The notes under the pieces were generated by a model. It had not been told where the DNA came from. It saw nothing but the letters and a program-made list of their open reading frames with translations, and searched no databases. Below are positions 7,671 through 22,105 of a stretch of DNA of 24,040 nucleotides, one piece after another (the first letter of the stretch is position 1; every line of letters starts with the position of its first letter). This stretch comes from a virus (taxonomy: Duplodnaviria > Caudoviricetes). Both the position numbers and the translations under genes were made by a program. The stretch covers positions 1-24,040 of IMG/VR virus record IMGVR_UViG_3300027373_000020; one strand, 5' to 3'.

Positions 7671-10600
7671 TCACCCTGTTTTTGCAATCGCCTTCGTTTC
7701 TTTATCGGCCATGATCTTAAAATCCTGGTAAACCCATTTACCTGATACACCCTCTCTCATCAACTTTTCAGCAGCATCCGAAAAGCGGTTCATAGCATCA
7801 ATCATTTCCGGATCCGCATCACGCCCGGTTTGATTAACCTTTGTGGGTTGTGGTTGTCCAGGTGCCAAACGTGGCGTTGTGCTTTCAATCACTGCAGGCA
7901 AATTAATATGCCGTGCCGTGCCGGCACGCTGGGCATAATCAATCAGGTTCAGAATCGGCCTGATGGTGGGGTTTCGGTTTGCTGCAGCATTAGCCACAAA
8001 TTCATTCGCATGAACCACACCTACAGCTTTGTAATCATCAGGATCTTCATCGGTAAAACCCCCAGCGTAAAACTGAGGCGGTTTTTGTGCAATAATAACA
8101 GCTGTTTCGGCGGCACCCATTATACCTGCCGCGATAGCCCTTGGAATTGCAGTTACAGGATCACCTCCGGATAGCTGCGTTAGAACCGCCATGGCTGTTT
8201 TCATTATTGCCGAAACAATATTGGCCGCTTTCTCTTTCTTCCATGCTTCGAGCTTCATTTGTGCTTCGCGCTTCCGGTATTTCTCATTAATTTTTGCTCT
8301 TTGTTCCTCGGTTAAATTGGTATTTGCCAATTCGGCCTCCCTTTGAGCATTAAGCGATGCAAGCTTTGCATCAAGCTCAGCCTGCTGCCTGTTTTTAATG
8401 ATATCAAAAATTGCATTTTGTGTCGAATTGGCAATATCTAAAGCAGCATTTTTCCAGGCTTCTTGCTTTGCCTGTTCAGCATCCCATTTAGCCTGAGGAT
8501 CTTCATTATTATTTTTGAGCTTTGATTCCTGGGGTCTGACATTGAACCAGGGTTTATCTTCAAGTTTTTTAGGCGTTGGGATTCCTGACATCCTGCCTAT
8601 TTCAACCGCAATGTTCTTAATGCTTTGCTCAACCCTTGCGAGTTCTGCCCGGTCCTTCACCAATTGCCTTATCATACTTTCGGGCACCGGCTGATTGGCC
8701 AGAATAAGCTTTCTGATCGCATCCTCAGTTTTCTTAATCCTGTCGGTCAAAGCTGCAAACTGATCTATTGGGCCACTCAGGTCATTAGCAAGCGCCTCGT
8801 TCAGATTATTGCTTACCGCCTTCAGTTTATCAGCAATGCGTTTATATTCCTCACTGCCTTTTTCATAATTTTTGAGAGCTGTGGTTAACAGGCGCTGTTT
8901 CTCTTCAAGCTGTGTTACTGCTTTTCCTGTAATCTGATCTGCAATACTCTCTGCATTTACTGTTTCATCAAGTCCGGAATATTGTCCCCAAAGTTGTTTT
9001 ATCTGGTCCTGCATCTGCTTAATCGAATCTGTCATTTCATCAGCTGCAGCTGCACCATTCTTCACAGCATCAAAAGCATTCCAAATATTAGCAAGGGCAG
9101 GGTTGTTCACTAATAAAACAGTGTTAACCATGCGTTGCCAAAGTGTCACGCGTGTATTATCCTGCTCAATTCTCTTTTGTGTTGCTTGCATCAAAACCAA
9201 TTCGGCTTCAGCCTGGTTCAAGGTAGCTTTTGTTTGCTCAAGCAAAGTTCTTTTTTGCTCAGCACTCATTTTGTTCAGCTGACTAATTGCGATTTCCTGA
9301 TTTTGATAGTTTATCTTTAGGTTCTGGTTGGCAATATTCAGTTTCTCAATTGCATCCAGTTTTTCTTTTTCGAGCCTCAGGCTTTCAGCACTGTATTTAT
9401 CATATAGTTTAATTGCGAAAACAAGGGCAGTAACCAAAGTAATCACAGCCCCGAGCGGATTGGCTGACAAAGCCAGGTTCCAGGCAAGCTGAGCCGATGC
9501 AGCGAGTTTTGTCGCTGTCGTTTCACCCATGGTCCAGATGATGAGCAGTTGTTTTCTGGCAGCCAATGTACTATCGGCAATGGCATTCTTAATCCTCAGG
9601 CCAATTCCTTCTTTTAACAGCAAATTATTGTAAACATGAGCAATCGACTCTGCAATGAGGGCGCTTTTTAAGGCAAGTGTTGCACCGGCTACCGCAATCA
9701 AAGCGATCTGGTATTTTACAAAAAACTCGGGGGCATACATGATAGCCCTCATAAAATAAGTAAATGCATTCGTGCTGAAAGTTATAGCAGGCGCCAACTT
9801 TTCACCAAAAGCAATCGTCACTAGCTCGGCCCTGTTTTTTGCCTGCTGAAGTTTCGTGGCATTGTTATCGGTGTTTATCGAAGCCTGTTCAAGTGCCACA
9901 CTGGTGCCGGTTACTGCTGTAGTATATTTTTTAAATTCAGCAGTGTTATTAAAAAGGATATTGGCAGCATTGATATTTTCAGTACCAAAAAGATCAGTGA
10001 GTTTGATAACATCCCATTGTGCTGCTTTCATATTTACAAAAGCCTGCTGCAACCCCACAATCGATGGTCTTAAATTTTCATCCGATTGTGTCTCAAGCTT
10101 CAGCATGATATTTCTAAGGCTTCTGCCGGCCATCTCTGGCTCTGTCATCCTCGGAGCGAGGGTTTCCAAGGCTCCGGTAAGCTCTTCAATACTTATACCA
10201 AAAGATGCTGCTACCGATCCTGCTTTTTCAAAACCGGCAGCCAGGTAATCAATCTCTCCGGCACCTTCTTTACTACCGGCAGCCAAAATATTGATAATCT
10301 TACGCGATTCTGATGCAGGGGCATTAAACTGGTTCAAAACCATTGTGAGGCCATCAACAGCAGGTTGCAGATCACCGTTTGCCGCTGCAGCTAAAATCAT
10401 CGCTTCCTGGGTAACACCATTCAGATCCTCTTTTACTTTTAGCAGTTCAGGACGCTTGCTACCCACTTTTGTATAAGCATCAACAATCTCGGTGGCTGAT
10501 GAGGCAATACGCACATTACCCTCAAGAGTGGCAGTGCTCATTTCTTTGGCTTTTTCGGTCAGCCAGTCCAAATCATCACCCACAAGGCCGGTAAGTGCCG

Positions 10601-11135
10601 AGAGGTTGTCAACCCTTTTCTCAAACACATTAAAAGTATCAACCGCCTTTCGTAAACCAAACACAACACCGGTAAATGTAGCCACGGCAGCCGTAGCTAT
10701 GCCAAAATACCTGTTGAAGCCATCAGCGAGTTTCTTAATACCACCCGTGTGCTCCCTGGAACGACCAACAGCCTTATCAAGCTCGGACGACAATAATGCT
10801 GCCTGGTTTTTCTTTTCGCCTAAACCCGGATCATTCCTTTTCATTGATCTGATTTCCGAATTGACCTTTTTTAATGCTTTTTCAAGCTCTATGACTGAGG
10901 CCCCGGATAGATTTTTAAGCACTTTATCAACCTCAAATATGCCCCTTTCTAACTTTTTTGATTCGCCGGTAAGCTTATTTATTTGCTTATCAAGCTTCGT
11001 ATAAGCTGTAACATCTTTATCCTGGAAGGCTTTGTCTCTAAGACGAATAAGTTCTTGTAACTGACCTTCAATTTCTTTAAGTCTGGCCTTGGCATCCTCG
11101 TTGTTTATTCCAACATAAAGATTAGCTTGTTTCAT
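7671..11135 (-). CDS. Tail tape measure protein (TP901-type core)
   Basis: ~1154 aa helical; core motifs (NILAAGSKEGA, SIEELTGALETL, AGRSLRNIMLKL, LFGTEN), hydrophobic ANPLG region, C-terminal FYAGGFT...GVVHANEFV. ATG at 11135 preferred over GTG at 11138. Confidence 0.92.
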   Translation of the reverse strand: MKQANLYVGINNEDAKARLKEIEGQLQELIRLRDKAFQDKDVTAYTKLDKQINKLTGESKKLERGIFEVDKVLKNLSGASVIELEKALKKVNSEIRSMKRNDPGLGEKKNQAALLSSELDKAVGRSREHTGGIKKLADGFNRYFGIATAAVATFTGVVFGLRKAVDTFNVFEKRVDNLSALTGLVGDDLDWLTEKAKEMSTATLEGNVRIASSATEIVDAYTKVGSKRPELLKVKEDLNGVTQEAMILAAAANGDLQPAVDGLTMVLNQFNAPASESRKIINILAAGSKEGAGEIDYLAAGFEKAGSVAASFGISIEELTGALETLAPRMTEPEMAGRSLRNIMLKLETQSDENLRPSIVGLQQAFVNMKAAQWDVIKLTDLFGTENINAANILFNNTAEFKKYTTAVTGTSVALEQASINTDNNATKLQQAKNRAELVTIAFGEKLAPAITFSTNAFTYFMRAIMYAPEFFVKYQIALIAVAGATLALKSALIAESIAHVYNNLLLKEGIGLRIKNAIADSTLAARKQLLIIWTMGETTATKLAASAQLAWNLALSANPLGAVITLVTALVFAIKLYDKYSAESLRLEKEKLDAIEKLNIANQNLKINYQNQEIAISQLNKMSAEQKRTLLEQTKATLNQAEAELVLMQATQKRIEQDNTRVTLWQRMVNTVLLVNNPALANIWNAFDAVKNGAAAADEMTDSIKQMQDQIKQLWGQYSGLDETVNAESIADQITGKAVTQLEEKQRLLTTALKNYEKGSEEYKRIADKLKAVSNNLNEALANDLSGPIDQFAALTDRIKKTEDAIRKLILANQPVPESMIRQLVKDRAELARVEQSIKNIAVEIGRMSGIPTPKKLEDKPWFNVRPQESKLKNNNEDPQAKWDAEQAKQEAWKNAALDIANSTQNAIFDIIKNRQQAELDAKLASLNAQREAELANTNLTEEQRAKINEKYRKREAQMKLEAWKKEKAANIVSAIMKTAMAVLTQLSGGDPVTAIPRAIAAGIMGAAETAVIIAQKPPQFYAGGFTDEDPDDYKAVGVVHANEFVANAAANRNPTIRPILNLIDYAQRAGTARHINLPAVIESTTPRLAPGQPQPTKVNQTGRDADPEMIDAMNRFSDAAEKLMREGVSGKWVYQDFKIMADKETKAIAKTG

Positions 11136-11138
11136 CAC

Positions 11139-12750: not shown

Positions 12751-13574
12751 GCACCAAAAACAATAAATGGATCTTCCGAAATATCGCGTTCAGCCACCTG
12801 TGTTGCAGCATAAATCGCACTTGACTTAAACTCAGGGTATTTATCCGGATCGGCCATCAGCACCGATCGCACCCGGGCCACAAAGCTTTGCCCTGAAGCT
12901 TCGTCACCATTGGCAAAGTAGGCTAGGGCAAACCGCAGGTCAGACAGCAGTTTCTTATAATCATCAGAAAGGTCACCATCACGAAGGCCCTCAATGATTT
13001 TTTCAGAAAGTTCTTTACTGATCACCGGTTCAATCTTCAGTTTTCTCACCGAAGTCAACACGGGGATGAAAGCAATAAAATCAATCCGGTTACCGGCAAA
13101 CCTTCCGTATTTTCTGAATTCTCTGATACTGCTCACATAGTTATCATTGATCAGGGTGTAGGTTGTTGATCCTTTCCATGCGGCTTCGATATCACCATTC
13201 TCAGCTTCAAGGTATTCAAGCAGGTCCTCAATAGCCTCATCCAGTTTTGCAGCTGTGGCTGCTTTCAGTTCAGCCACACGCTGTGGCGAAGCAGGAGCCA
13301 GATTCGTATTCCTCACCACCGCAAAACCACTATCTGTTTCAAGCAGATCCAGAAACGGGATCGCCTCAAGGTAGCCTTTATATGCCACTACCGATTGAAC
13401 CATTGCCAACAAATCAGGCTCTGTTGGAGTAGCCAGGTCAAAAAGTTCGGTACCGGTGATTTCGCGTTTCACAAACCGCTCAGCAGTTGCCAGGTAAGGT
13501 TTGTACTTATCAAAGTTATCACCGGCAACCGTGGCAATCAATTGTTTCAGGGTTTCAATATTCTCAATGATCAT
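12747..13574 (-). CDS. DUF6712-like protein, probable head-tail adaptor
   Basis: 275 aa after portal; AIPFLDLLETDSGFAVVRNTNLAPASPQRV motif typical of this Bacteroidota prophage family. Confidence 0.65.
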   Translation of the reverse strand: MIIENIETLKQLIATVAGDNFDKYKPYLATAERFVKREITGTELFDLATPTEPDLLAMVQSVVAYKGYLEAIPFLDLLETDSGFAVVRNTNLAPASPQRVAELKAATAAKLDEAIEDLLEYLEAENGDIEAAWKGSTTYTLINDNYVSSIREFRKYGRFAGNRIDFIAFIPVLTSVRKLKIEPVISKELSEKIIEGLRDGDLSDDYKKLLSDLRFALAYFANGDEASGQSFVARVRSVLMADPDKYPEFKSSAIYAATQVAERDISEDPFIVFGA

Positions 13575-14926
13575 GGCGTAGGAGTTTCTGTTGCAGTGGT
13601 GGATTGTTTACCTGTTTTGTTGTTGTCGAGCGTGGTAAATTCAAAGCTTACCACCTTCCAAACAAGGTCTTTCGGAAAGTTATTAAACCGGCTAACAAGC
13701 GTTAGGGGCCTGATGAGCCTGTCGCGGTAAGGGGTCATCATGGCATCTTTGATCATGAAAAGCTCACGTTTATCGGTCCCACTCAAACTATTGCCTGCTT
13801 TACCTGGTTGGTTCCCGATCAGGCTGCCATGCACCTGCATCGAGAAGTTGATTGTGTTGGCCACTTCCGATATATCTTCAAGATATTCACCGCCTTTTAA
13901 GCCATTTTTCAACTCAACAAACTCGATGTATTTTTCTTCAATTGCTGTTGATCCTGATGGCACCATCTTTTTGAGGGCCACCAGCCCTTTACCGGCATTT
14001 TTTTCATCCGACAAAAAGGTCCGCCACTTTGCAAACTCTTCTTCCTTTCTTGCCTTTACCTTTTCGGGGTTGTTCCGGTCAATTTTTTCTTCATTGAAAA
14101 TCAAATCCCAATACTTATCCGAAACATAAATCACCCATCTCACTGCCAGGCCATTCTTCAGCAGGGCCTTTTTGAAGTTCCAGATCATGGCCGCAAAATC
14201 GTACGATCCTGAAGCAAAAATGCTCCAGAACGGTGGCTTCTGGTAGTATTCTCTTCCTGGTGTCGGGAAGCTGATCTGCAGCATGAATCTAGGTGTGCTG
14301 ATCTTCCGGTTTTTGATCCGGTTCTGTAGGTCACCCAAAGGATTATTTCGCATCAAAACATCGCTGATCACAGTATTATCAACGTTTGCTCCATCAACCC
14401 ATTTCGAGCTGTAAAAATGTCTGATGATCTCACCGGTTGCTCTGTCCTTTTCGCCCCATCGGCTGAAGGTCGCCTCTTTGTGCCTGAGGCTATACACAGC
14501 CGACATATCGCGGGTTAAAATGATTTCAGGGAAGGTGTTATAAAAGGTGGCCATATCAGCACACTGCTCAAGAAAATAGCCTGGAATATCATTGTTTTCG
14601 TAAAACTCTAAAACCCGTTCATCAATGCAAGGGGTAAACTTATCTTTACCATTTTCAGTCGATTTTATGAATGGATGCACGCCCTGGCCATACATCATTT
14701 TGATGTTGTGATCGAGGTTACTCGCAACAATTTCTGAGTCCTGTATCTTCTTTAATACTTCAGCTGGCAGGTTGTTACTCTCTCCCCATGGGACCACCTT
14801 GTATTTATCCAGTGTGATTGTGCTATCAGGATCTGTCAGCATATCAGCTGACGGAACCTGTGCAATGATTGCTTTTGCTTCAGGAAGATAGGTTAAATTA
14901 TCTATTTCAAAATTTTCGTAGCTCAT
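13571..14926 (-). CDS. Portal protein
   Basis: 451 aa; PWGESNNLP, YGQG, YYQKP.W, GSLIG, SGTDKRE motifs typical of Bacteroidota phage portals. Confidence 0.8.
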   Translation of the reverse strand: MSYENFEIDNLTYLPEAKAIIAQVPSADMLTDPDSTITLDKYKVVPWGESNNLPAEVLKKIQDSEIVASNLDHNIKMMYGQGVHPFIKSTENGKDKFTPCIDERVLEFYENNDIPGYFLEQCADMATFYNTFPEIILTRDMSAVYSLRHKEATFSRWGEKDRATGEIIRHFYSSKWVDGANVDNTVISDVLMRNNPLGDLQNRIKNRKISTPRFMLQISFPTPGREYYQKPPFWSIFASGSYDFAAMIWNFKKALLKNGLAVRWVIYVSDKYWDLIFNEEKIDRNNPEKVKARKEEEFAKWRTFLSDEKNAGKGLVALKKMVPSGSTAIEEKYIEFVELKNGLKGGEYLEDISEVANTINFSMQVHGSLIGNQPGKAGNSLSGTDKRELFMIKDAMMTPYRDRLIRPLTLVSRFNNFPKDLVWKVVSFEFTTLDNNKTGKQSTTATETPTP

Positions 14927-15144
14927 AAGGCAATCTCCTCATCATTAAATGCGATGATGGTGCAGCGCCTGATGGTGCGTATCTCATCACTTGGATTAAT
15001 TTTGATGTTCATCGTTCGGCCCCGGCTGTGCCAGCTGGTGCAAATCGCTTCTTTGGCCATAACGATATTGCCTTCCTCGGCAACAAAAGCAATCGAGAAA
15101 CTGCCCTTTTCAACAATCTTGTGAAGGTTCGAGAGTAAGATCAT
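14923..15144 (-). CDS. Small beta-rich conserved phage protein upstream of portal
   Basis: 73 aa, stop overlaps portal start; preceded by a TGTCC promoter. Confidence 0.7.
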   Translation of the reverse strand: MILLSNLHKIVEKGSFSIAFVAEEGNIVMAKEAICTSWHSRGRTMNIKINPSDEIRTIRRCTIIAFNDEEIAL

Positions 15145-15160
15145 GCCCTGTTTTTTTTAA

Positions 15161-15196
15161 CAATGATAATCAGCCCCGAAGCCTAACAAAAGGACA
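15161..15196 (-). promoter_or_regulatory. Putative phage late promoter, copy 2 (TGTCC-N23-TATCATTG)
   Basis: Immediately downstream of a terminator and upstream of the portal operon. Confidence 0.7.
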
Positions 15197-15198
15197 AT

Positions 15199-15230
15199 AA
15201 AAAAGCCCTGAATGTATCCAGGGCTTTTAT
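15199..15230 (-). terminator. Intrinsic terminator (possibly bidirectional)
   Basis: AAAAGCCCTG-aatgtatc-CAGGGCTTTT hairpin with A/T tracts on both sides. Confidence 0.8.
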
Positions 15231-15242
15231 GAGTTATTGCAG

Positions 15243-15644
15243 TCAATAATGAGGTGGGTCAAGCGTTCGGTAGGTATCGCCTTCGTTCCCATGCAGCATC
15301 TTGAGAACTGAAATTTTCTGGTGATTCATCCCAAAGTAGTTGTGTAAGCAGGTACCCGACTCATCCATCTCAATATTAGGAGGGTCATAATTACAGCTAT
15401 GAGCGCGAAGCGTCACTGCTCGGGTTATGATCGTCTCTGCAGGAGATTGAATAAGGCTTACCTGTTCAAACATCAGAGGTGAATCAACCGGCAAGGTTGC
15501 CAGTACAAAAACAGAAGCATGAGCGGTTTGCGTGTCAACCGACAGGCAAACATGCTGCACATCACCGGGCGGACCGGCATCAGCTTGCGGAGCTGCAATA
15601 AACAGCGCAAAGGCAAGGCTTAAAAGGAAAAGCAGTTTTTTCAT
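15243..15644 (-). CDS. Secreted hypothetical protein (Sec signal peptide)
   Basis: MKKLLFLLSLAFALFIAAPQADA signal peptide from ATG 15644; own promoter and terminator. Confidence 0.7.
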   Translation of the reverse strand: MKKLLFLLSLAFALFIAAPQADAGPPGDVQHVCLSVDTQTAHASVFVLATLPVDSPLMFEQVSLIQSPAETIITRAVTLRAHSCNYDPPNIEMDESGTCLHNYFGMNHQKISVLKMLHGNEGDTYRTLDPPHY

Positions 15645-15678
15645 TTCCAATGCTTTTTGGTTAATACTAATGATGCAG

Positions 15679-15714
15679 TAAACCTAAGGCAGCTGCTTCA
15701 GAATGAAAAGGACA
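15679..15714 (-). promoter_or_regulatory. Putative phage late promoter, copy 3 (TGTCC-N23-TAGGTTTA)
   Basis: Same motif and spacing as the other two copies. Confidence 0.6.
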
Positions 15715-15722
15715 TGAAAATC

Positions 15723-16364
15723 TTAAATGAATTTTCTGAAAAATCTTATAAGGCGGGGATATAGTTTAAAATTTTGCATGTCAATTATTGAAAAAGAAAT
15801 CGCTATAAACATGAGTAACATACAAAAAATCGTAATCGAAATGGCTATTATAAATACAATGCAACTATTCTCCTTAATAAGTTGAGTGTGTGTATTTGCT
15901 AAAACAATAATTGAGAATGAAATAACCAACACACCGAGACCAATAGATACAACACTAAACAATTTCAAAATATTTTTCATGGTTTGATGCTGTTCAATCG
16001 TAAGTTTCACACTATGAAAAAGATTAAACAGGTCCATAACCATAGGATTCTTAATATTTTTCTGAATTATCAAAATAAATTTATCAATCTCGAAAATCGA
16101 ATTATATGGGACCGATGTATCAGCAATAGTCTGAATACGATTTAAATTACTTCGTAAATTAAATATAATCACACGGTCATCAACGAAATTCGCTATTTCT
16201 TCTGACCGTGATATAAGATATTTCAATTTAATTATCTGTAAATCTGTATATTCTTTGATCTTATTAATTACAAAAACACCACTTAATGCTAAAAACGCAG
16301 CCAATACCTGGGCAATTGAAGAAAGTGTATAATACATCGATGTTGCAACGTCATCCATGGTCAT
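15723..16364 (-). CDS. AT-rich 3-TM membrane protein (moron)
   Basis: One N-terminal and two C-terminal TM helices; visibly lower GC than flanks; ATG 16364 or 16358 more likely than TTG 16382. Confidence 0.7.
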   Translation of the reverse strand: MTMDDVATSMYYTLSSIAQVLAAFLALSGVFVINKIKEYTDLQIIKLKYLISRSEEIANFVDDRVIIFNLRSNLNRIQTIADTSVPYNSIFEIDKFILIIQKNIKNPMVMDLFNLFHSVKLTIEQHQTMKNILKLFSVVSIGLGVLVISFSIIVLANTHTQLIKENSCIVFIIAISITIFCMLLMFIAISFSIIDMQNFKLYPRLIRFFRKFI

Positions 16365-16371
16365 CTTAGAT

Positions 16372-16590
16372 TTAAACTTCAATCCTGATCTTCATCCCAA
16401 TCACTTCACATAGCTTAATGAACACATCAAGATCAGGAGCGTATTTCCCTTTAAAAAGCCGGTCAATAGTGAATGGTCTATATCCAGTCTTTTCTGCAAT
16501 TTCTTCAATGGTTATACCTTTCGATTCTGCTGCTTTTCGCAGCTGATCCATCAATTGCTTTGAAGCTTCAATGTATTTTTCATCTTTCAT
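16372..16590 (-). CDS. XRE/Cro-type HTH regulator
   Basis: LRKAAESKGITIEEIAEKTGYRPFTIDRLFKGKYAPDLDVFIKLCEVIG fits the HTH_3 pattern. Confidence 0.88.
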   Translation of the reverse strand: MKDEKYIEASKQLMDQLRKAAESKGITIEEIAEKTGYRPFTIDRLFKGKYAPDLDVFIKLCEVIGMKIRIEV

Positions 16591-16594
16591 ATTC

Positions 16595-16602
16595 CAAAAT
16601 TA
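16595..16602 (-). promoter_or_regulatory. Bacteroidota sigma-A -7 box (TAATTTTG)
   Basis: Perfect TAnnTTTG 4 nt before the HTH ATG. Confidence 0.6.
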
Positions 16603-16637
16603 AGTAATAATATCATTCAACAGAAAATCCAAACGCC

Positions 16638-16730
16638 GCAGCTCTGCTGCATGGCACAATCTGTGAGCGCACAAATAAAACACAAGTCCCTTCGCGCTCA
16701 CTCCATGCCCGCCGTAGCGAAGCGAAGGCG
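16638..16730. other. GC-rich hairpin cluster, ssi/sso-like
   Basis: GCATGG..GTGAGCGC pairs with GCGCTCAC.CCATGC; GCAGC-tct-GCTGC; CGCC..TAGCGAAGCGAA..GGCG. Confidence 0.5.
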
Positions 16731-16735
16731 CGCCG

Positions 16736-16776
16736 CAAAAAATGAGGGGGTAAGCATGGTTTTCATGCTTCCCCTC
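16736..16776 (-). terminator. Intrinsic terminator after the ArdC-like gene
   Basis: Minus strand GAGGGGAAGCATG-aaaac-CATGCTTacCCCCTC followed by aTTTTTT. Confidence 0.7.
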
Positions 16777-16808
16777 TTGGTTAAAAAATCTAATTATGTA
16801 TTAGGTTT

Positions 16809-17201
16809 TCATCCCTCAACCTCCTGCAGCCTACGTTCAACCTGCGCATTACTGAAAATATGCGAAATCGGATAAAAACGTTCGTTCTCGTCGTCCGGTT
16901 CTTCTCCCTTCTCAATCCGCTGGCTGTTCAAAGGTCTGCCCCACACAACAAAACCGTGCGAATCTTTAATAATACTGAAGCCCTCTTGCTTCCACTCGTT
17001 AAAAGTCCGGAATTCCGTATTTGTAGCATCCTTGTAAAATTTCTCTACGATAATAGAGTTCAAGGTCCTCGAGGCCCAGTACATGGCTTGGGCTTCATTT
17101 TTTGCTTCAAGGCTTTTACTTACAATTTCATCGCGTAGCGTTCTGGCTTGCGCTGTAAGTTCACAAAGCACTCTGCGTTTGGCTTTCGTCCTGTCGTTCA
17201 T
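16809..17201 (-). CDS. ArdC-like ssDNA-binding domain protein (N-terminal domain only)
   Basis: FRTFNEWKQEGFSIIKDSHGFVVW...FYPISHIFSNAQV matches the ArdC-N/DUF1738 pattern TFxQWxxxGxxVxKGxxxxxI...VFxxxQ; no metallopeptidase domain. Confidence 0.75.
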   Translation of the reverse strand: MNDRTKAKRRVLCELTAQARTLRDEIVSKSLEAKNEAQAMYWASRTLNSIIVEKFYKDATNTEFRTFNEWKQEGFSIIKDSHGFVVWGRPLNSQRIEKGEEPDDENERFYPISHIFSNAQVERRLQEVEG

Positions 17202-17668
17202 TGCTCAATCTCCTTTTGAAGTTCATCAACGCGGTCGGCAATCTTCACCAGGATAAACTGCATACACTCGGCAAGGATTAGCGGATTTGTAAGGCTGAAA
17301 ACTTTCTGCCCTTCACGGTCATAGTCACGATACTGCGAAACGGAAAGCCTGTACACTTTAGCCTCAAAATCACGGGCTCTAACTTTTTCGTTTACAAGGT
17401 TCAGGGCTTCTTCAATCTCCTTTTTGTTGAGCTTGAAGGATTCCAGTTCGGCAATTTTGCGTTGCTTCTCACGATAAAAACTGATAGCTTCATCAATACT
17501 TTTGTGCTGTTTTTCGCTCAACTGCTTTTCCAGTTCCGAAATGCGATCAACCAAAAGATTGAAGTTAACAGGTGCTTCCTGTTCGGTGGTGGTTACTTCG
17601 GGAGCTTCTAAAGCTTCAACCGCTTTTTGTTCTTCGGCATGGTCTGCCTTTTTGATTTTGTTATTCAT
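17198..17668 (-). CDS. Coiled-coil hypothetical protein coupled to the ArdC-like gene
   Basis: Charged helical protein, ATGA overlap with next gene; ATG 17668 preferred because GTG 17719 overlaps the -7 box. Confidence 0.7.
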   Translation of the reverse strand: MNNKIKKADHAEEQKAVEALEAPEVTTTEQEAPVNFNLLVDRISELEKQLSEKQHKSIDEAISFYREKQRKIAELESFKLNKKEIEEALNLVNEKVRARDFEAKVYRLSVSQYRDYDREGQKVFSLTNPLILAECMQFILVKIADRVDELQKEIEQ

Positions 17669-17718
17669 TAAAAATACTGCCGCATTTATACTGTTGCCGC
17701 CAGTTCTAAATTGTTTCA

Positions 17719-17726
17719 CAAAGATA
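17719..17726 (-). promoter_or_regulatory. Bacteroidota sigma-A -7 box (TATCTTTG)
   Basis: Perfect TAnnTTTG ~50 nt upstream of ATG 17668; no clear -33 box, but ATTAATCG is repeated twice at 17742-17760. Confidence 0.6.
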
Positions 17727-18041
17727 CGGTCTAACTGCTTGATTAATCGTATATTAATCGCTTGTATCCGTTTATCAACGAATAAAAAAAGTCATTTTTT
17801 TGCCCCTCTCAGGATGTTCCCTAAAATTCAGACCAGTTTTCAAGCCTGTCTAAGGATCTGTTTAGGTTCAAAGGGAAAAAATTCCCTTTGTCAGTCAGAA
17901 GACCCCGCACCGCTCTGAGAGTCTTTGTAATGACAAAATCAGGCTTTTTTGTGATATATGTAAGTTAATTAGAACGATTCTAAACAGGCCGCGCCGTGTG
18001 TGGGCTTGGTGTGAGTGCAAATTGTACCCGTGTAATTACAT

Positions 18042-18072
18042 AAAAAAAGCCCCTACCGATAGATAAGGGCTT
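18042..18072 (-). terminator. Intrinsic terminator of the antirepressor operon
   Basis: Minus strand AAGCCCTTATC-tatc-GGTAGGGGCTT then a T run; G-U pairs work only on the minus strand. Confidence 0.75.
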
Positions 18073-18100
18073 ATGTGCGTGGGGACGCTGGCGCAAAGGC

Positions 18101-18394
18101 CTAATTGTGCTTGTCGTGACCTCCTTTTTGATTGATTTCATACATAGCATCTATGAAAATGAAGATGAAATAGAATGATTCGCCTAGCTCACGTAATTGG
18201 GACAAGTCAAGGCCTAAATCATTCTCAGTGCGGCCAATGATTGAGTTCTGAATCATAAACAAACTACGTTTGATGTTGTCAAATTCCTGGGTTTGTTCAT
18301 ACAACTCTTTCATGCGCTTTACCAGTTGCACAAGATTATAGTCGATGGCAATGCCATCGACTATAATCGTGCTCTGTTGTTTGTTGTTACACAT
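18101..18394 (-). CDS. Hypothetical protein
   Basis: 97 aa, starts 2 nt after the antirepressor stop. Confidence 0.6.
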   Translation of the reverse strand: MCNNKQQSTIIVDGIAIDYNLVQLVKRMKELYEQTQEFDNIKRSLFMIQNSIIGRTENDLGLDLSQLRELGESFYFIFIFIDAMYEINQKGGHDKHN

Positions 18395-18396
18395 GG

Positions 18397-18906
18397 CTAT
18401 TCGAATTGAAGTTGTAGCTGTGCGTGTTGCTCAAGATAGTTATCGAAGGTAACAGCGAGCCTGCCTTTAAGTTCGTGTTCAGCTTCGGTAAGCTTGTCTT
18501 TGGCATGGCTGAATTCGATGCGGGCAGCATCGCGGATGGCAATTTGCTCTTCGATGCTTTTGTTGCGGTACTCAACATAGTTTTGATAACTCACCAATGA
18601 GTCCCACAAAAGGTCGTAAGCCTTTGTTTGGGCAATAAGCAGGCTGTCGCGGGCATCCTCGTGCACATTACGCACATCAATTTTGGCAAGCCACATAAAG
18701 GCATATTTGAAAGGCAAACATACCATTTCACGGTCTTTACCATCGGCACCAACTGTGGTGCTAAGCACCATAGTTGAACTCAGGATTTTGTCTGATTTCA
18801 GCTTTTCGTACTGGCTTTTAAAATCGATGCCAAGCATCTGACAAAGGGGTTTGATGGGGATCAGTTTCTGATCGCCTTGCTGGATGATCTGAAGTTGGTT
18901 TTTCAT
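18397..18906 (-). CDS. Phage antirepressor, P22_AR N-terminal domain
   Basis: IPIKPLCQMLGIDFKSQYEKLK...GADGKDREMVCLPFKYAFMWL is the P22 Ant N-terminal pattern; C-terminal coiled coil ending QLQLQFE. Confidence 0.85.
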   Translation of the reverse strand: MKNQLQIIQQGDQKLIPIKPLCQMLGIDFKSQYEKLKSDKILSSTMVLSTTVGADGKDREMVCLPFKYAFMWLAKIDVRNVHEDARDSLLIAQTKAYDLLWDSLVSYQNYVEYRNKSIEEQIAIRDAARIEFSHAKDKLTEAEHELKGRLAVTFDNYLEQHAQLQLQFE

Positions 18907-19061
18907 TGTAAGCCTCCTTCCTGCAATTTGATCCGGATGGCCCTGATTTGGCGCTTGGGCACGTGGGTAATGAACTCAAGAACCTGGTTAAGGTTCATTT
19001 TGTGAAAATGGGCAGGCTGCTCTTTTTTGCTAAGCCTGCGCCTTGCATGGGTTGTAAACAT
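18903..19061 (-). CDS. Small basic leader protein (Icd/Kil-position analogue)
   Basis: 52 aa from ATG 19061, ATGA-coupled to the antirepressor with AGGAGG upstream; the track's TTG start lies inside an RNA hairpin. Confidence 0.5.
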   Translation of the reverse strand: MFTTHARRRLSKKEQPAHFHKMNLNQVLEFITHVPKRQIRAIRIKLQEGGLQ

Positions 19062-19077
19062 GTGGAATTCCTCCAAT

Positions 19078-19203
19078 GGAAAAAACCCGACAGGTTTGCA
19101 ACGGCTCAAGTGAGCCGGCCGAACCCTCGCGAGATCGGCAACCTATCGGGTTTTCCCCTATTTGGTGAAATAATTTACAGAGCATTGATACTTGATTTTT
19201 GCA
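19078..19203 (-). ncRNA. C4/CI-like cloverleaf regulatory RNA or attenuator
   Basis: 15-bp closing stem 19082-19096/19140-19154 (one G-U pair, valid only on minus), two internal hairpins, upstream of an antirepressor operon. Confidence 0.6.
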
Positions 19204-19206
19204 CTG

Positions 19207-19236
19207 CAAATGTAATCACACTTTTAAAGAAATCAA
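19207..19236 (-). promoter_or_regulatory. Bacteroidota sigma-A promoter TTG-N19-TACATTTG
   Basis: Canonical -33/-7 elements with 19-nt spacer. Confidence 0.75.
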
Positions 19237-19248
19237 GTGGTCTATGTA

Positions 19249-19857
19249 TTATTTTTTAGGAAGACTATTTATCAGACTATTACGTGCCTTATTGGCACTA
19301 CTCATTGCGTTTTCATCTTCAAATGAAAATAAAGTAGAATGATTAAATCTACCATCATACCAGTCTATTGATAGATATGCATGGTTCTTTTTTTTATTCT
19401 TTTTCCAGGCTAAAGCAAATACCCCTACAAGTAATACTCTACCTAAAGTAATTTTTTTCTCAATTGTCGAAGAATCCTCAATTGATATATCTTTTATTTT
19501 ATCAAAAGGTATTTCTGCTTTAAAAGTAGGCATATCTGAAATAAAAGGCCGGTGATAAAGTTTTAATGAGCAGTCTTTTGGCAAAACATGGCATGAATTA
19601 AATCCGTCATTTAAAGACGGGTGACCAGCAATGTAAGTACCACAATCTATAAAATTGTTAAAATTGATACCTTTATTACTAAGCGATTTATTCGTTTTTT
19701 CTGTATTCCTAATGCTATTAACAAGAGATACTATAAATAAAACAAAAATAGCGACTAGTAACAGCCAAAACCAGTCAGCAATATGTGGTTCACCTTTATC
19801 ATCGAATGTGCATGATTGTAAGAGTAATAAAATAGTAGGAAAAATAATCTTTTTCAT
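19249..19857 (-). CDS. AT-rich membrane/lipoprotein moron
   Basis: MKKIIFPTILLLLQSC lipobox-like start, a TM helix, and ITLGRVLLVGVFALAWKK segment; low GC. Confidence 0.7.
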   Translation of the reverse strand: MKKIIFPTILLLLQSCTFDDKGEPHIADWFWLLLVAIFVLFIVSLVNSIRNTEKTNKSLSNKGINFNNFIDCGTYIAGHPSLNDGFNSCHVLPKDCSLKLYHRPFISDMPTFKAEIPFDKIKDISIEDSSTIEKKITLGRVLLVGVFALAWKKNKKKNHAYLSIDWYDGRFNHSTLFSFEDENAMSSANKARNSLINSLPKK

Positions 19858-19917: not shown

Positions 19918-21540
19918 CTAAATTGTGGTTGATGCCGAGCTGCCTGCAGGAGCTGCACCTGCGCTATCATTATCATGCAAAAACATGCCAATCATCAGGG
20001 TATCAAAAGCATCAGTGCCATCGGTACGGGTTTCGAGGCGGTCTTCTTCGGTTTCGGCAAGTTTTTCGCCCGACTTATCCTTTTGGAAACCAAGAGGACC
20101 AATTTTAACACCGGTGTTTTCAAGGCCAATCTTCAAAGCTTCATTATTAGGTTCGTTTATCATTGGCAATAGGTATCTCTGCCCTTTAAAGCCCTGGTCA
20201 ATGATGTTGTATTTTTCATGATGCTTTGGAGGTTGGCCAATGAATATTTTTGTCACCCGCCACCCACGTTTCTCAAACTGTGAGCAGATCACCGAGGCAA
20301 AGTCTTCGTCTGACACAGCATAATTCGACCCCAGGGCAGTGGTATCATAGAAATAGACCACTTCACGGGTGAGATGGATTCGGTAGTATTCACAAAAATC
20401 ATCAACCAATTCGCGCAGTTTGCGCTGGTATTTCACATAAAAGCTCTTGAGTACAAGCGCTTTTACGCCTGATCGTTGGCTACAAACAAGCCAGTTGATA
20501 TTGGCATTGTAGTCAAAGGCAACCCTGATCGGACGCGACAGGTCCACATCAGCATCCTGGGCGCAGCTTTCGGCCTGTGCTTTTTCAAAATCATAATCAA
20601 GGCCCTGCAGGTAGCTGTTGTCAAAAGCCTTGTAAAAATGATGATCGCGCAATGATGGGTAAAAGCCATCTTTGAGCTTGCCCGGGCGCAGGCAGAGGAT
20701 GGAAGTAGCAAATACCAAAGGCGGCAAATCGCGCTTCATCTGGGCGATGTATTTCTTACCGATGATCTGCACGTTTTCGATCGAACTTGCTTCGCGGTAA
20801 TAAACGGCCACACTGCGGAACTGAGCCAGTTTAAGACTGAGCTCACGGATCAGGCGTTGGTTCCATTCGGTTGGTGGGTTTTGCTTCAGCTCATAAATAC
20901 GCCAAACAAGCAGCTTAATCATATTGATCAGTTCAGGATCCATTTTCTCACGATAGTTTAAAAACCATGATCCTTTTTTACTTGTTGGCATATCAGAGGT
21001 GAACAACATACTGTTCAACCATGGTGAGTTTTTCCATGGGCCTTTGTAACCACCATTTGCCGGAAAAGTTTCGTCTTTGAGTTTTTCGAAATCTAAAAAT
21101 TTGGCCTCATCACCCAACAGGTACTGAAGGGTAAGTGAGTTGGATGATCCGGGAATATCCTGACTGATCAGGTACTGGATCGAGCCATTGTACCAGCTCA
21201 CCACATGGTCATAGCTTACAGGTTCAATCACCGGTTCCTTGAAACCTGCAGTTTTGGGCGGTTTACGGCCAATGAAATAGTGCAGGTTTCGTTTGAAGCC
21301 TTGATCAGCAAGCGCTTTTAAGGTTCCGGGAAGCGTGCGGGTAAGCAGTTGCTGAAAGGTTGAGCCCACAATACCACCACCGGAACCGGGCATGTGTTGC
21401 AGGTTGCGTAAAAGCCAGGGAGCATTAAGTCCATGACTTTTACCAATACGCCTGCCACCAACAAAAACGGTCGTATGAGCAGCAATATACCTGACCTCAA
21501 GTTGTGGCCGGTTGAAATATATCTTCTTCTTTTCGGTCAT
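19918..21540 (-). CDS. terL: Terminase large subunit
   Basis: Walker A GGRRIGKS, Walker B LLGDEAKF, RNase H-like nuclease VAFDYN...TDGTDAFDTL; ATG 21540 preferred over TTG 21570. Confidence 0.9.
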   Translation of the reverse strand: MTEKKKIYFNRPQLEVRYIAAHTTVFVGGRRIGKSHGLNAPWLLRNLQHMPGSGGGIVGSTFQQLLTRTLPGTLKALADQGFKRNLHYFIGRKPPKTAGFKEPVIEPVSYDHVVSWYNGSIQYLISQDIPGSSNSLTLQYLLGDEAKFLDFEKLKDETFPANGGYKGPWKNSPWLNSMLFTSDMPTSKKGSWFLNYREKMDPELINMIKLLVWRIYELKQNPPTEWNQRLIRELSLKLAQFRSVAVYYREASSIENVQIIGKKYIAQMKRDLPPLVFATSILCLRPGKLKDGFYPSLRDHHFYKAFDNSYLQGLDYDFEKAQAESCAQDADVDLSRPIRVAFDYNANINWLVCSQRSGVKALVLKSFYVKYQRKLRELVDDFCEYYRIHLTREVVYFYDTTALGSNYAVSDEDFASVICSQFEKRGWRVTKIFIGQPPKHHEKYNIIDQGFKGQRYLLPMINEPNNEALKIGLENTGVKIGPLGFQKDKSGEKLAETEEDRLETRTDGTDAFDTLMIGMFLHDNDSAGAAPAGSSASTTI

Positions 21541-22105
21541 CAGTTTCGGTTTGGTAGGATAATGAGTCAAGCTCTATTTCGCCAGCGTATTTTTCGAACA
21601 GACGTTTGATCTCTGCTTTTTCGTCTTGCAGAGGGGTAATGTCAAGCACCGAAGGGTCTGAAGTAGGTTCGATACCAGTGGGAATTATTTCATCCCATGG
21701 CATTTCTTCAGTATCTTCCTGATCAAGGCGGTTGAATTTTGCCAGTGCCGAGATAGCCATGATACGTTCTTTCAGTTTTCCTGCGTCTTTTGCCGCTTTG
21801 ATGGCATTTTTCAATTCCTCGTTAACGACGTATCGTATCCATTCTTTGCCGGCATTGCGAATGTTTGGTAGGATAATTTTGAGGTTCGAGATATCGCGAT
21901 AGGCTTGCGACTGGCTGATGCCAAACTGAAGCATCAGGTTGTCGCGAAGTGTCACATCAGAATAACTCGGATTTTCGAGCAGTATTGTAAAAGCAAACCT
22001 GTAGCGAAGCAACTGGTTTCTTTCAGTTTCGGTCATATCCGTTATTGAACCGATATCCGAAAACATCAGCTCATTAAACTTATCTAATTTTGATGGCCTA
22101 CTCAT
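21497..22105 (-). CDS. Putative terminase small subunit (HTH)
   Basis: FGISQSQAYRDI HTH plus AISALAKFNRLD oligomerisation-like helix; overlaps terL start. Confidence 0.55.
   Translation of the reverse strand: MSRPSKLDKFNELMFSDIGSITDMTETERNQLLRYRFAFTILLENPSYSDVTLRDNLMLQFGISQSQAYRDISNLKIILPNIRNAGKEWIRYVVNEELKNAIKAAKDAGKLKERIMAISALAKFNRLDQEDTEEMPWDEIIPTGIEPTSDPSVLDITPLQDEKAEIKRLFEKYAGEIELDSLSYQTETDDRKEEDIFQPATT

Follow-up and report, generated by a model that had tools for sequence, protein, structure and literature searches.

Organization of the cassette

The window, by which we mean the whole stretch of 24,040 nucleotides analysed, is part of a tailed Bacteroidota phage in which the genes for the terminase large subunit (terL), the portal and the tape measure all lie on the minus strand. 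It carries a unit made up of a -7 promoter, a coiled-coil (CC) gene, a gene coding for an ArdC-N domain only, a terminator-like hairpin and a GC-rich hairpin cluster. This unit, hereafter the cassette, had been recognized in an initial annotation of the sequence and was found again in full, at the positions listed here together with its surroundings.

19918-21570, minus strand: terL
17900-17961, minus strand: three-block motif, predicted cos region (PWM; record and contig ends of relatives)
17961-17953, minus strand: block A, ACATATATC
17934-17927, minus strand: block B, GTCATTAC
17918-17900, minus strand: block C, TCAGAGCGGTGCGGGGTCT, with this strand predicted to be cut between 17904 and 17903
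17719-17726, minus strand: Bacteroidota -7 promoter element, TATCTTTG (sequence)
17198-17668, minus strand: CC gene, 156 aa, the usual first gene of the cassette
16809-17201, minus strand: stand-alone ArdC-N gene (PF08401-like), 130 aa (homologues, fold)
16737-16776, minus strand: terminator-like hairpin and T run ending the operon (folds)
16712-16728, plus strand: 17-mer CCGTAGCGAAGCGAAGG, containing a GC-GAA-GC mini-hairpin (motif overrepresented in genomes of ssDNA viruses)
16649-16708, no strand assigned: long interrupted stem (DNA fold, -10.2/-10.7 kcal/mol), locus-specific
13571-14926, minus strand: portal
7671-11138, minus strand: tape measure

The -7 consensus of Bacteroidota promoters is TAnnTTTG. 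A relaxed form, TAnnTTT[GA], is present at most 130 nt from the CC ATG in 43 of 51 loci against 32 of 124 control regions, and the strict form in only 14 of 51 against 19 of 124. The CC gene most likely starts at the ATG at 17668 (156 aa) rather than at an upstream GTG (173 aa), because the longer frame begins inside the promoter. Its stop codon overlaps the ATG of the ArdC-N gene at 17198-17201. The stem of the terminator-like hairpin (16744-16776) is bulged and followed by T6 on the minus strand; it folds at -12.1 kcal/mol and was not flagged by a consensus terminator scan. The gap between promoter and CC gene (17669-17710) contains the leader ACTGGCGGCAACAGTATAAATGCGGCA, which recurs before an unrelated gene at about 1890-1900 of locus L067 (loci are designated by L and a number) and is possibly a small regulatory leader.

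The window terL is 24-28% identical to those of Duneviridae and Helgolandviridae isolates, and the phage appears to work like these, as a Duneviridae-like temperate phage. Its relatives carry an integrase, for which reason a Mu-like transposable phage was dropped as a candidate. In three loci the terL stop codon is directly followed by a Flavo-1-like repeat (L006:3945-4005, L007:1470-1530 and L015:3172-3255), which has no match in Rfam.

The ArdC-N and CC proteins

The window ArdC-N protein scores 16.6 bits against Pfam PF08401, under the cut-off of 22.6, while 27 of 29 aligned homologues match this family at E≤0.05, the best at 6e-10; the assignment to the ArdC family thus relies on the matches of the homologues and on weak fold matches. 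The ArdC-N family has a BHD-like fold, in which nested β-hairpins come after helices. The model of the protein (pLDDT 86.5) finds its best, weak, fold matches in R388 ArdC (PDB entries 6i89 and 6sna; Foldseek E 0.03; VIA Z 5.3, rmsd 3.5 over 70 aligned residues, a weak match) and in the BHD region of Rad4/XPC (rmsd 1.6 over 44 residues), and a sequence search of the PDB returned no ArdC match. The C-terminal zincin metalloprotease domain is missing: the protein has 130 aa and stops directly after the ArdC-N domain, and its homologues mostly have 111-156 aa. In L011 (4986-5800), ArdC-N is tandemly duplicated inside a single cassette.

The CC protein is composed of a disordered N-terminus, long helices and a β-hairpin (model pLDDT 76). 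It has no significant match in Pfam, NCBIfam, the PDB or BFVD; a fold search gave only prefoldin-like coiled-coil matches, none of them significant, and its matches in Atlas are unnamed clusters, mainly viral or from Bacteroidota. It is a member of a conserved, unnamed protein family. Prediction of a complex of the two proteins, proposed as a check in the initial annotation, gave a score of 0.52 against 0.00 for the best control, a contact agreement of 96% and a partner pLDDT of at least 82. Of 157 solved complexes 116 reached the mark of the method, as did 2 of 215 mismatches; scores of at most 0.60 comprise only 18 of the 157 solved complexes and both mismatches, so that 0.52 is graded as weak.

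A three-block motif marks the predicted cos end

Judging from a position weight matrix (PWM) and from the ends of related records and contigs, the three-block motif is most likely the cos site of the phage. The initial annotation, whose coordinates end just before it, overlooked that the cassette adjoins a predicted cos. The window scores 45.9 at 17961-17900, with a maximum of 19.5 among 60 shuffled loci, on a PWM that was trained on the cassette loci themselves, in whose flanks the motif was first read. Of the 50 loci with sufficient room, 41 have the motif upstream of the cassette and on its strand, and none has it on the opposite strand; the median distance from the first gene is 250 nt. 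In the window, about 235 nt separate the predicted cos end from the cassette. For isolates outside the training set the scores are 27.3 (6H), 40.0 (BT-TP2), 22.4 (Ingeline), 14.2 (phage019b) and 3.5 (Leef). Since the motif follows terL also in phages devoid of the cassette, it belongs to the phage.

Several sequence ends bear on this assignment. The ends of Leef_1 are given, in the accessible part of its description, as Cos 3' on the basis of a PhageTerm prediction only (PMC8776804); the record ends 83 nt past terL, in a GC-rich block with the A-16-B-9-C spacing. The Ingeline record is cut within block C, and that of FPSV-D35 ends 6 nt past block B and does not run on into a cassette. Three of the 12 contigs that begin upstream of CC (L005, L054 and L067) have their first base at position 16 of block C, where the cut is predicted, 252, 252 and 276 nt ahead of the CC ATG, and the first nine bases of L067 are those of Leef; the other nine start away from the cut, which counts against the assignment. 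The motif was not found at the far ends of three incomplete viral records, and contigs from low-depth sequencing runs gave no end signal and run across the predicted cos site.

The motif and cassette have the same orientation as terL in 22 loci and the opposite one in 18. On a quick terL tree with 40 rows, the cos-cassette block must have flipped relative to terL at least four times, and the nearest terL relatives of the window have the opposite orientation; the polarity of cos and cassette is fixed despite these flips.

Other features were seen around this site. A palindrome, TTTAGAAT-N-TTCTAAA, lies at 17968-17984 on the minus strand and is also present in L003, L011, L018, L023, L063, L084 and L095; in 9 of 43 loci its position relative to the predicted cut is constant, at about -80 or +128 nt. 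It resembles the Fur box of Bacteroidota and might be bound by a host factor involved in packaging or late transcription. Beyond the predicted cos, as seen from the cassette, 18101-19109 holds a P22 Ant N-terminal gene (PF10547) together with two small ORFs and a terminator; genes like these also flank cos in L010 and L038. A near-perfect 20-bp inverted repeat occurs at 18331-18371, within a 97-aa ORF.

Distribution and cargo of related cassettes

In all, 89 loci were collected by scanning viral, genome and metagenome contigs; dereplication to <80% ArdC identity left 65. A cassette gene was found in 3 of 401 Bacteroidota genomes. The CC gene is present in 56 of the 65 loci, upstream of ArdC-N in 55 and directly adjacent to it in only 26. 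Among 72,556 plasmids no relative was found. The interpretation of the unit as a leading-region-like anti-defence cassette finds support in the conserved gene order and cargo described here. The cassette is not a conjugative leading region; its neighbours are terL or the portal in 58 of the 65 loci (within 5 kb of fetched flank) instead of oriT or a relaxase. Intact frames, the CC-first order, the promoter spacing and the distance of about 250 nt to cos are retained in loci from several host classes at protein identities of 30-45%.

The cargo of the cassettes was surveyed with 91 neighbouring ORFs compared to Pfam (90 hand-chosen from 172 candidates and one added), among which are 26 N6 methylases (one of them outside the cassette), 19 SymE-like proteins, 8 RadC, one DUF932 protein and one N6/N4 methylase. 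The cultured Flavobacterium phage laban6-1 carries, as gp23-gp27, the CC gene, a small ORF, a SymE-like gene, ArdC-N and a methylase, and the cultured Flavobacterium phage 6H (Duneviridae) has the same cassette type at gp14-gp18. The latter contains CC, SymE-like and DUF932 genes and lacks ArdC-N, which is therefore dispensable in the cassette. The whole cassette is absent from the close relatives Leef, Ingeline, BT-TP2 and phage019b and from 6 of the 7 loci of one set, and the interval between terL and the portal also houses other accessory genes, in the window as in BT-TP2.

Two further arrangements were noted. An ORF of about 73 aa is conserved between CC and ArdC-N in many Flavobacteriaceae loci (for instance L008:4522-4782 and L019:4741-4959); it has no match in Pfam or NCBIfam and is a candidate anti-defence gene. 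The short contigs L032 and L033, with no phage gene in view, carry ArdC-N, CC, RadC and the F2 element described below, with repeated, structured, promoter-like units before each gene (L032:888-1020, 1442-1487 and 1836-1881; L033:1290-1430). This layout is like that of a conjugative leading region and is a possible source of the cassette.

Structured DNA at the distal end

The elements that the initial annotation had described behind the operon, TAGCGA (16715-16720), GCGAAGC (16717-16723) and a nested stem (16649-16708), lie where it had placed them, and the surrounding 211 nt (16600-16810) fold better than dinucleotide shuffles, with z from -2.9 to -4.7 (-3.9 to -4.7 with DNA parameters). The short motifs are not rare, GCGAAGC occurring six and TAGCG[AT] nine times in the window; the chance of finding them in a shuffled 211-mer is 0.05 and 0.17, respectively, and 0.002 for their overlapping form TAGCGAAGC.

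TAGCG(A/T), carried in a loop, is the CS-6 box of ssoA/ssoU-type single-strand origins. As a conserved element it does not hold: it was found on the template strand behind 2 of 60 homologous cassettes against 3.7 in shuffles, and on the sense strand behind 4 of 60; GCGAAGC was found behind 1 of 60 against 1.0 in shuffles. Neither blastn nor nhmmer found a homologue of the long stem, or of the 143-nt region, in other loci. The hairpins named in the initial annotation are thus not conserved beside homologues, and its proposal that the unit protects and primes ssDNA through ssi/sso signals is unsupported as stated.

The 17-mer that contains the mini-hairpin has an estimated 280 or so matches in IMG/VR against 39 for the reversed pattern. 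Of the 77 contigs listed, 26 are <5 kb, compared with 1 of 39 when the pattern is reversed. A CRESS Rep or a microvirus capsid is encoded by 19 of the 28 small contigs tested, many of these small contigs coming from one study series. The motif lies between genes in 48 of 76 contexts, and in microvirus loci the strand that carries it is the mainly coding one. Two of 57 other cassettes (L013 and L088) have it at the same place and strand. The window 17-mer is thus a real motif of ssDNA type and not a conserved part of the cassette system. In the form CCGKAGCGMAGCGRAGG, it sits at the tip of variable stems in genomes of CRESS-like viruses, microviruses and tailed phages (L236-L314, IMG/VR), a candidate for a widespread structured ssDNA motif.

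Cassette ends are usually structured. With seven ends set by hand and the window locus, L022, L044 and L067 left out, 14 of 57 cassettes are followed by GNA-triloop hairpins on the template strand and 3 of 57 by such hairpins on the sense strand, against 4 of 124 control gene ends, the controls being unmatched for terminators and about half of the matches forming one related group. The median DNA fold z is -4.2 for cassette ends and -1.6 for controls. The distal elements belong to unrelated families and also close the 6H cassette, which is without ArdC-N.

One of these families, F2, consists of CT(A/T)CTTT, a variable hairpin and AAAG(T/A)AG, followed by CAAAAGAAA; it shows compensatory changes and a repeated purine tail, which its sequence would possibly allow to form a triplex. 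It was observed in L005 (1525-1600), L006 (5735-5800), L007, L009, L015, L033, L050, L051, L074, L080, L091, L092, L096, L099 and L104. A dispersed host repeat was rejected for F2, which is single-copy in 5/5 host genomes. RNAalifold returned no structure for its poor alignment, and Rfam gave nothing meaningful in window positions 15000-19500, in seven related loci or in L015, where F2 is unmatched. No RNA run was among the sequencing runs listed, no hairpin variation was seen in contigs from low-depth runs, and the text of PMC7000223 contains no "conserved hairpin".

Predicted function and direction of entry

In our reading, to which we give slightly better than even chances, the two-gene operon next to the predicted cos end of this temperate Bacteroidota phage is likely an anti-restriction island that is expressed early. 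Gene order, position, linkage to the cos motif and cargo are observed, and from them we infer function throughout. The terminase would bind blocks A and B, on the side away from the cassette, and cut in block C, leaving a 3' overhang. The cassette end would then be packaged last and enter first, and host RNA polymerase could read the operon at once from the -7 promoter. ArdC-N, perhaps together with CC, may bind DNA ends or single-stranded gaps and so blunt host restriction; relatives would add an orphan methylase, RadC or a SymE-like gene, and the distal structured DNA would close the operon. That the window cassette itself lacks methylase, RadC and SymE counts against this explanation. According to the accessible part of PMC7213743, ArdC of R388 protects against type I restriction if the recipient expresses it, does not need its protease activity for this and prefers overhang-bearing duplexes over blunt ones. 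Its DNA-binding groove adjoins the C-terminal domain (PMC7213743, same part), a domain missing in the window protein, and this also counts against the explanation.

Ejection follows the rule of last in, first out, and lambda cosQ is a termination signal. With blocks A and B as the terminase site, packaging would begin there and the cassette would be the first to enter; with these blocks as a cosQ-like termination signal, it would be the last. The small terminase of HK97 binds 15-29 bp from its own cos cut, as stated in the accessible part of PMC11331095, and the spacing between blocks B and A and the predicted cut is comparable. On balance, the cassette would probably enter first.

Three other explanations were weighed. 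The distal hairpins might be a single-strand initiation signal, with ArdC-N and CC protecting an ssDNA intermediate, formed on the window plus strand during replication or entry, and helping to prime it. The enrichment of the mostly intergenic 17-mer in CRESS and microvirus genomes, the template-strand bias of the GNA hairpins with the low fold z, the compensatory changes in the single-copy F2 element and the primase annotated in laban6-1 speak for it, but CS-6 and GCGAAGC are unenriched, the long stem is not conserved, the 17-mer recurs in two other cassettes only, unrelated families of distal elements close even the 6H cassette, the controls were unmatched for terminators and the loci related, and the laban6-1 annotation includes no rolling-circle initiator; we consider this explanation unlikely. 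The window itself does not cover the replication module. A more elaborate variant appears equally doubtful to us: a CC/ArdC-N complex would coat the 3'-ended, cos-proximal template strand exposed as ssDNA on entry or replication, and an interchangeable structured signal shared with ssDNA viruses would mark the stop of coating and the start of the second strand.

ArdC-N, through its resemblance to Rad4 BHD, and CC could instead serve end metabolism, binding cohesive overhangs or resected ends and aiding circularisation, recombination or packaging, as would suit the fixed polarity to cos, the overhang preference of ArdC (PMC7213743, accessible part), the Rad4 match and the weak predicted complex. 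That the cassette is wholly absent from the close relatives named above, that a diffusible protein can be encoded away from the end it binds and that the cargo is defence-related make this improbable. It is likewise with low probability that we see in the cassette a moron, a piece of a conjugative leading region that was captured at a tolerant site beside cos, is inherited together with cos and is either expressed in the prophage state or mostly inactive, and whose hairpins would be remnants or plain terminators: other accessory genes share the terL-portal interval, inversion of the block could yield the polarity to cos, and the L032 and L033 contigs carry the same genes with no phage gene visible, but the conservation of frames, order and spacing at 30-45% protein identity and the lack of plasmid relatives argue against it.

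The findings point to a constant location of anti-defence genes across a widespread group of temperate phages of Bacteroidota, for which the motif supplies a candidate cos consensus, and CC and the other small cargo are candidates for new anti-defence proteins. The system is testable, as the cultured laban6-1 carries the cassette, and would show whether and why ArdC-N by itself, a domain with a known place in ssDNA transfer, shields a phage with dsDNA.

Comparison with known systems

The cassette is a real, conserved arrangement of partly known parts and is apparently undescribed: the open literature searched, with subscription papers and bioRxiv supplements outside its scope, contained no paper on the cassette or its link to cos. 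Laban6-1 and 6H (Duneviridae) share it with the window; RefSeq annotates their genes one by one, and the literature searched describes them neither as a unit nor as linked to cos. Full ArdC is reported in huge phages (10.1101/2025.02.27.640493, accessible part), and the accessible part of PMC5512222, which treats ArdC-N in polyvalent proteins, names this domain as typical of conjugative elements. With these the cassette shares ArdC-family domains and RadC or methylase network partners, but the forms described in the accessible parts of both sources are full-length or fused, and a stand-alone ArdC-N operon at cos was not found there.

ArdC of the IncW plasmids R388 and pSa (PF08401 and metalloprotease; PDB entries 6i89 and 6sna) has the same N-terminal domain family and, by the weak fold matches, probably a similar fold; binding of ssDNA or overhangs, likely shared, and expression in the invaded cell are predicted here. 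Unlike it, the cassette protein has no protease, is about 14% identical in structural alignment, is phage-borne and is paired with CC. Plasmid leading regions carry orphan methylases, SSBs and toxin-antitoxin genes, according to the accessible text of PMC11541004, whose main text, in that part, does not name ArdC, RadC, SymE or DUF932. Like these islands, the cassettes cluster orphan methylases with genes of ssDNA-binding and toxin-antitoxin type near the presumed entry end; unlike them, they are anchored to a predicted cos rather than to oriT, have an ordinary -7 promoter and no relaxase in view.

First-injected phage regions often carry anti-defence genes, as set out in the part of PMC12455610 available. 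The cassette would be like these regions, of the T7 ocr type, in its variable anti-defence genes at a genome end and in its presumed early expression; unlike them, it occurs in temperate cos siphoviruses, as an island between terminase and portal that flips with cos and whose order of entry is predicted. By this comparison, the cassette appears to work like the known anti-defence islands but is neither a leading region nor a full ArdC.
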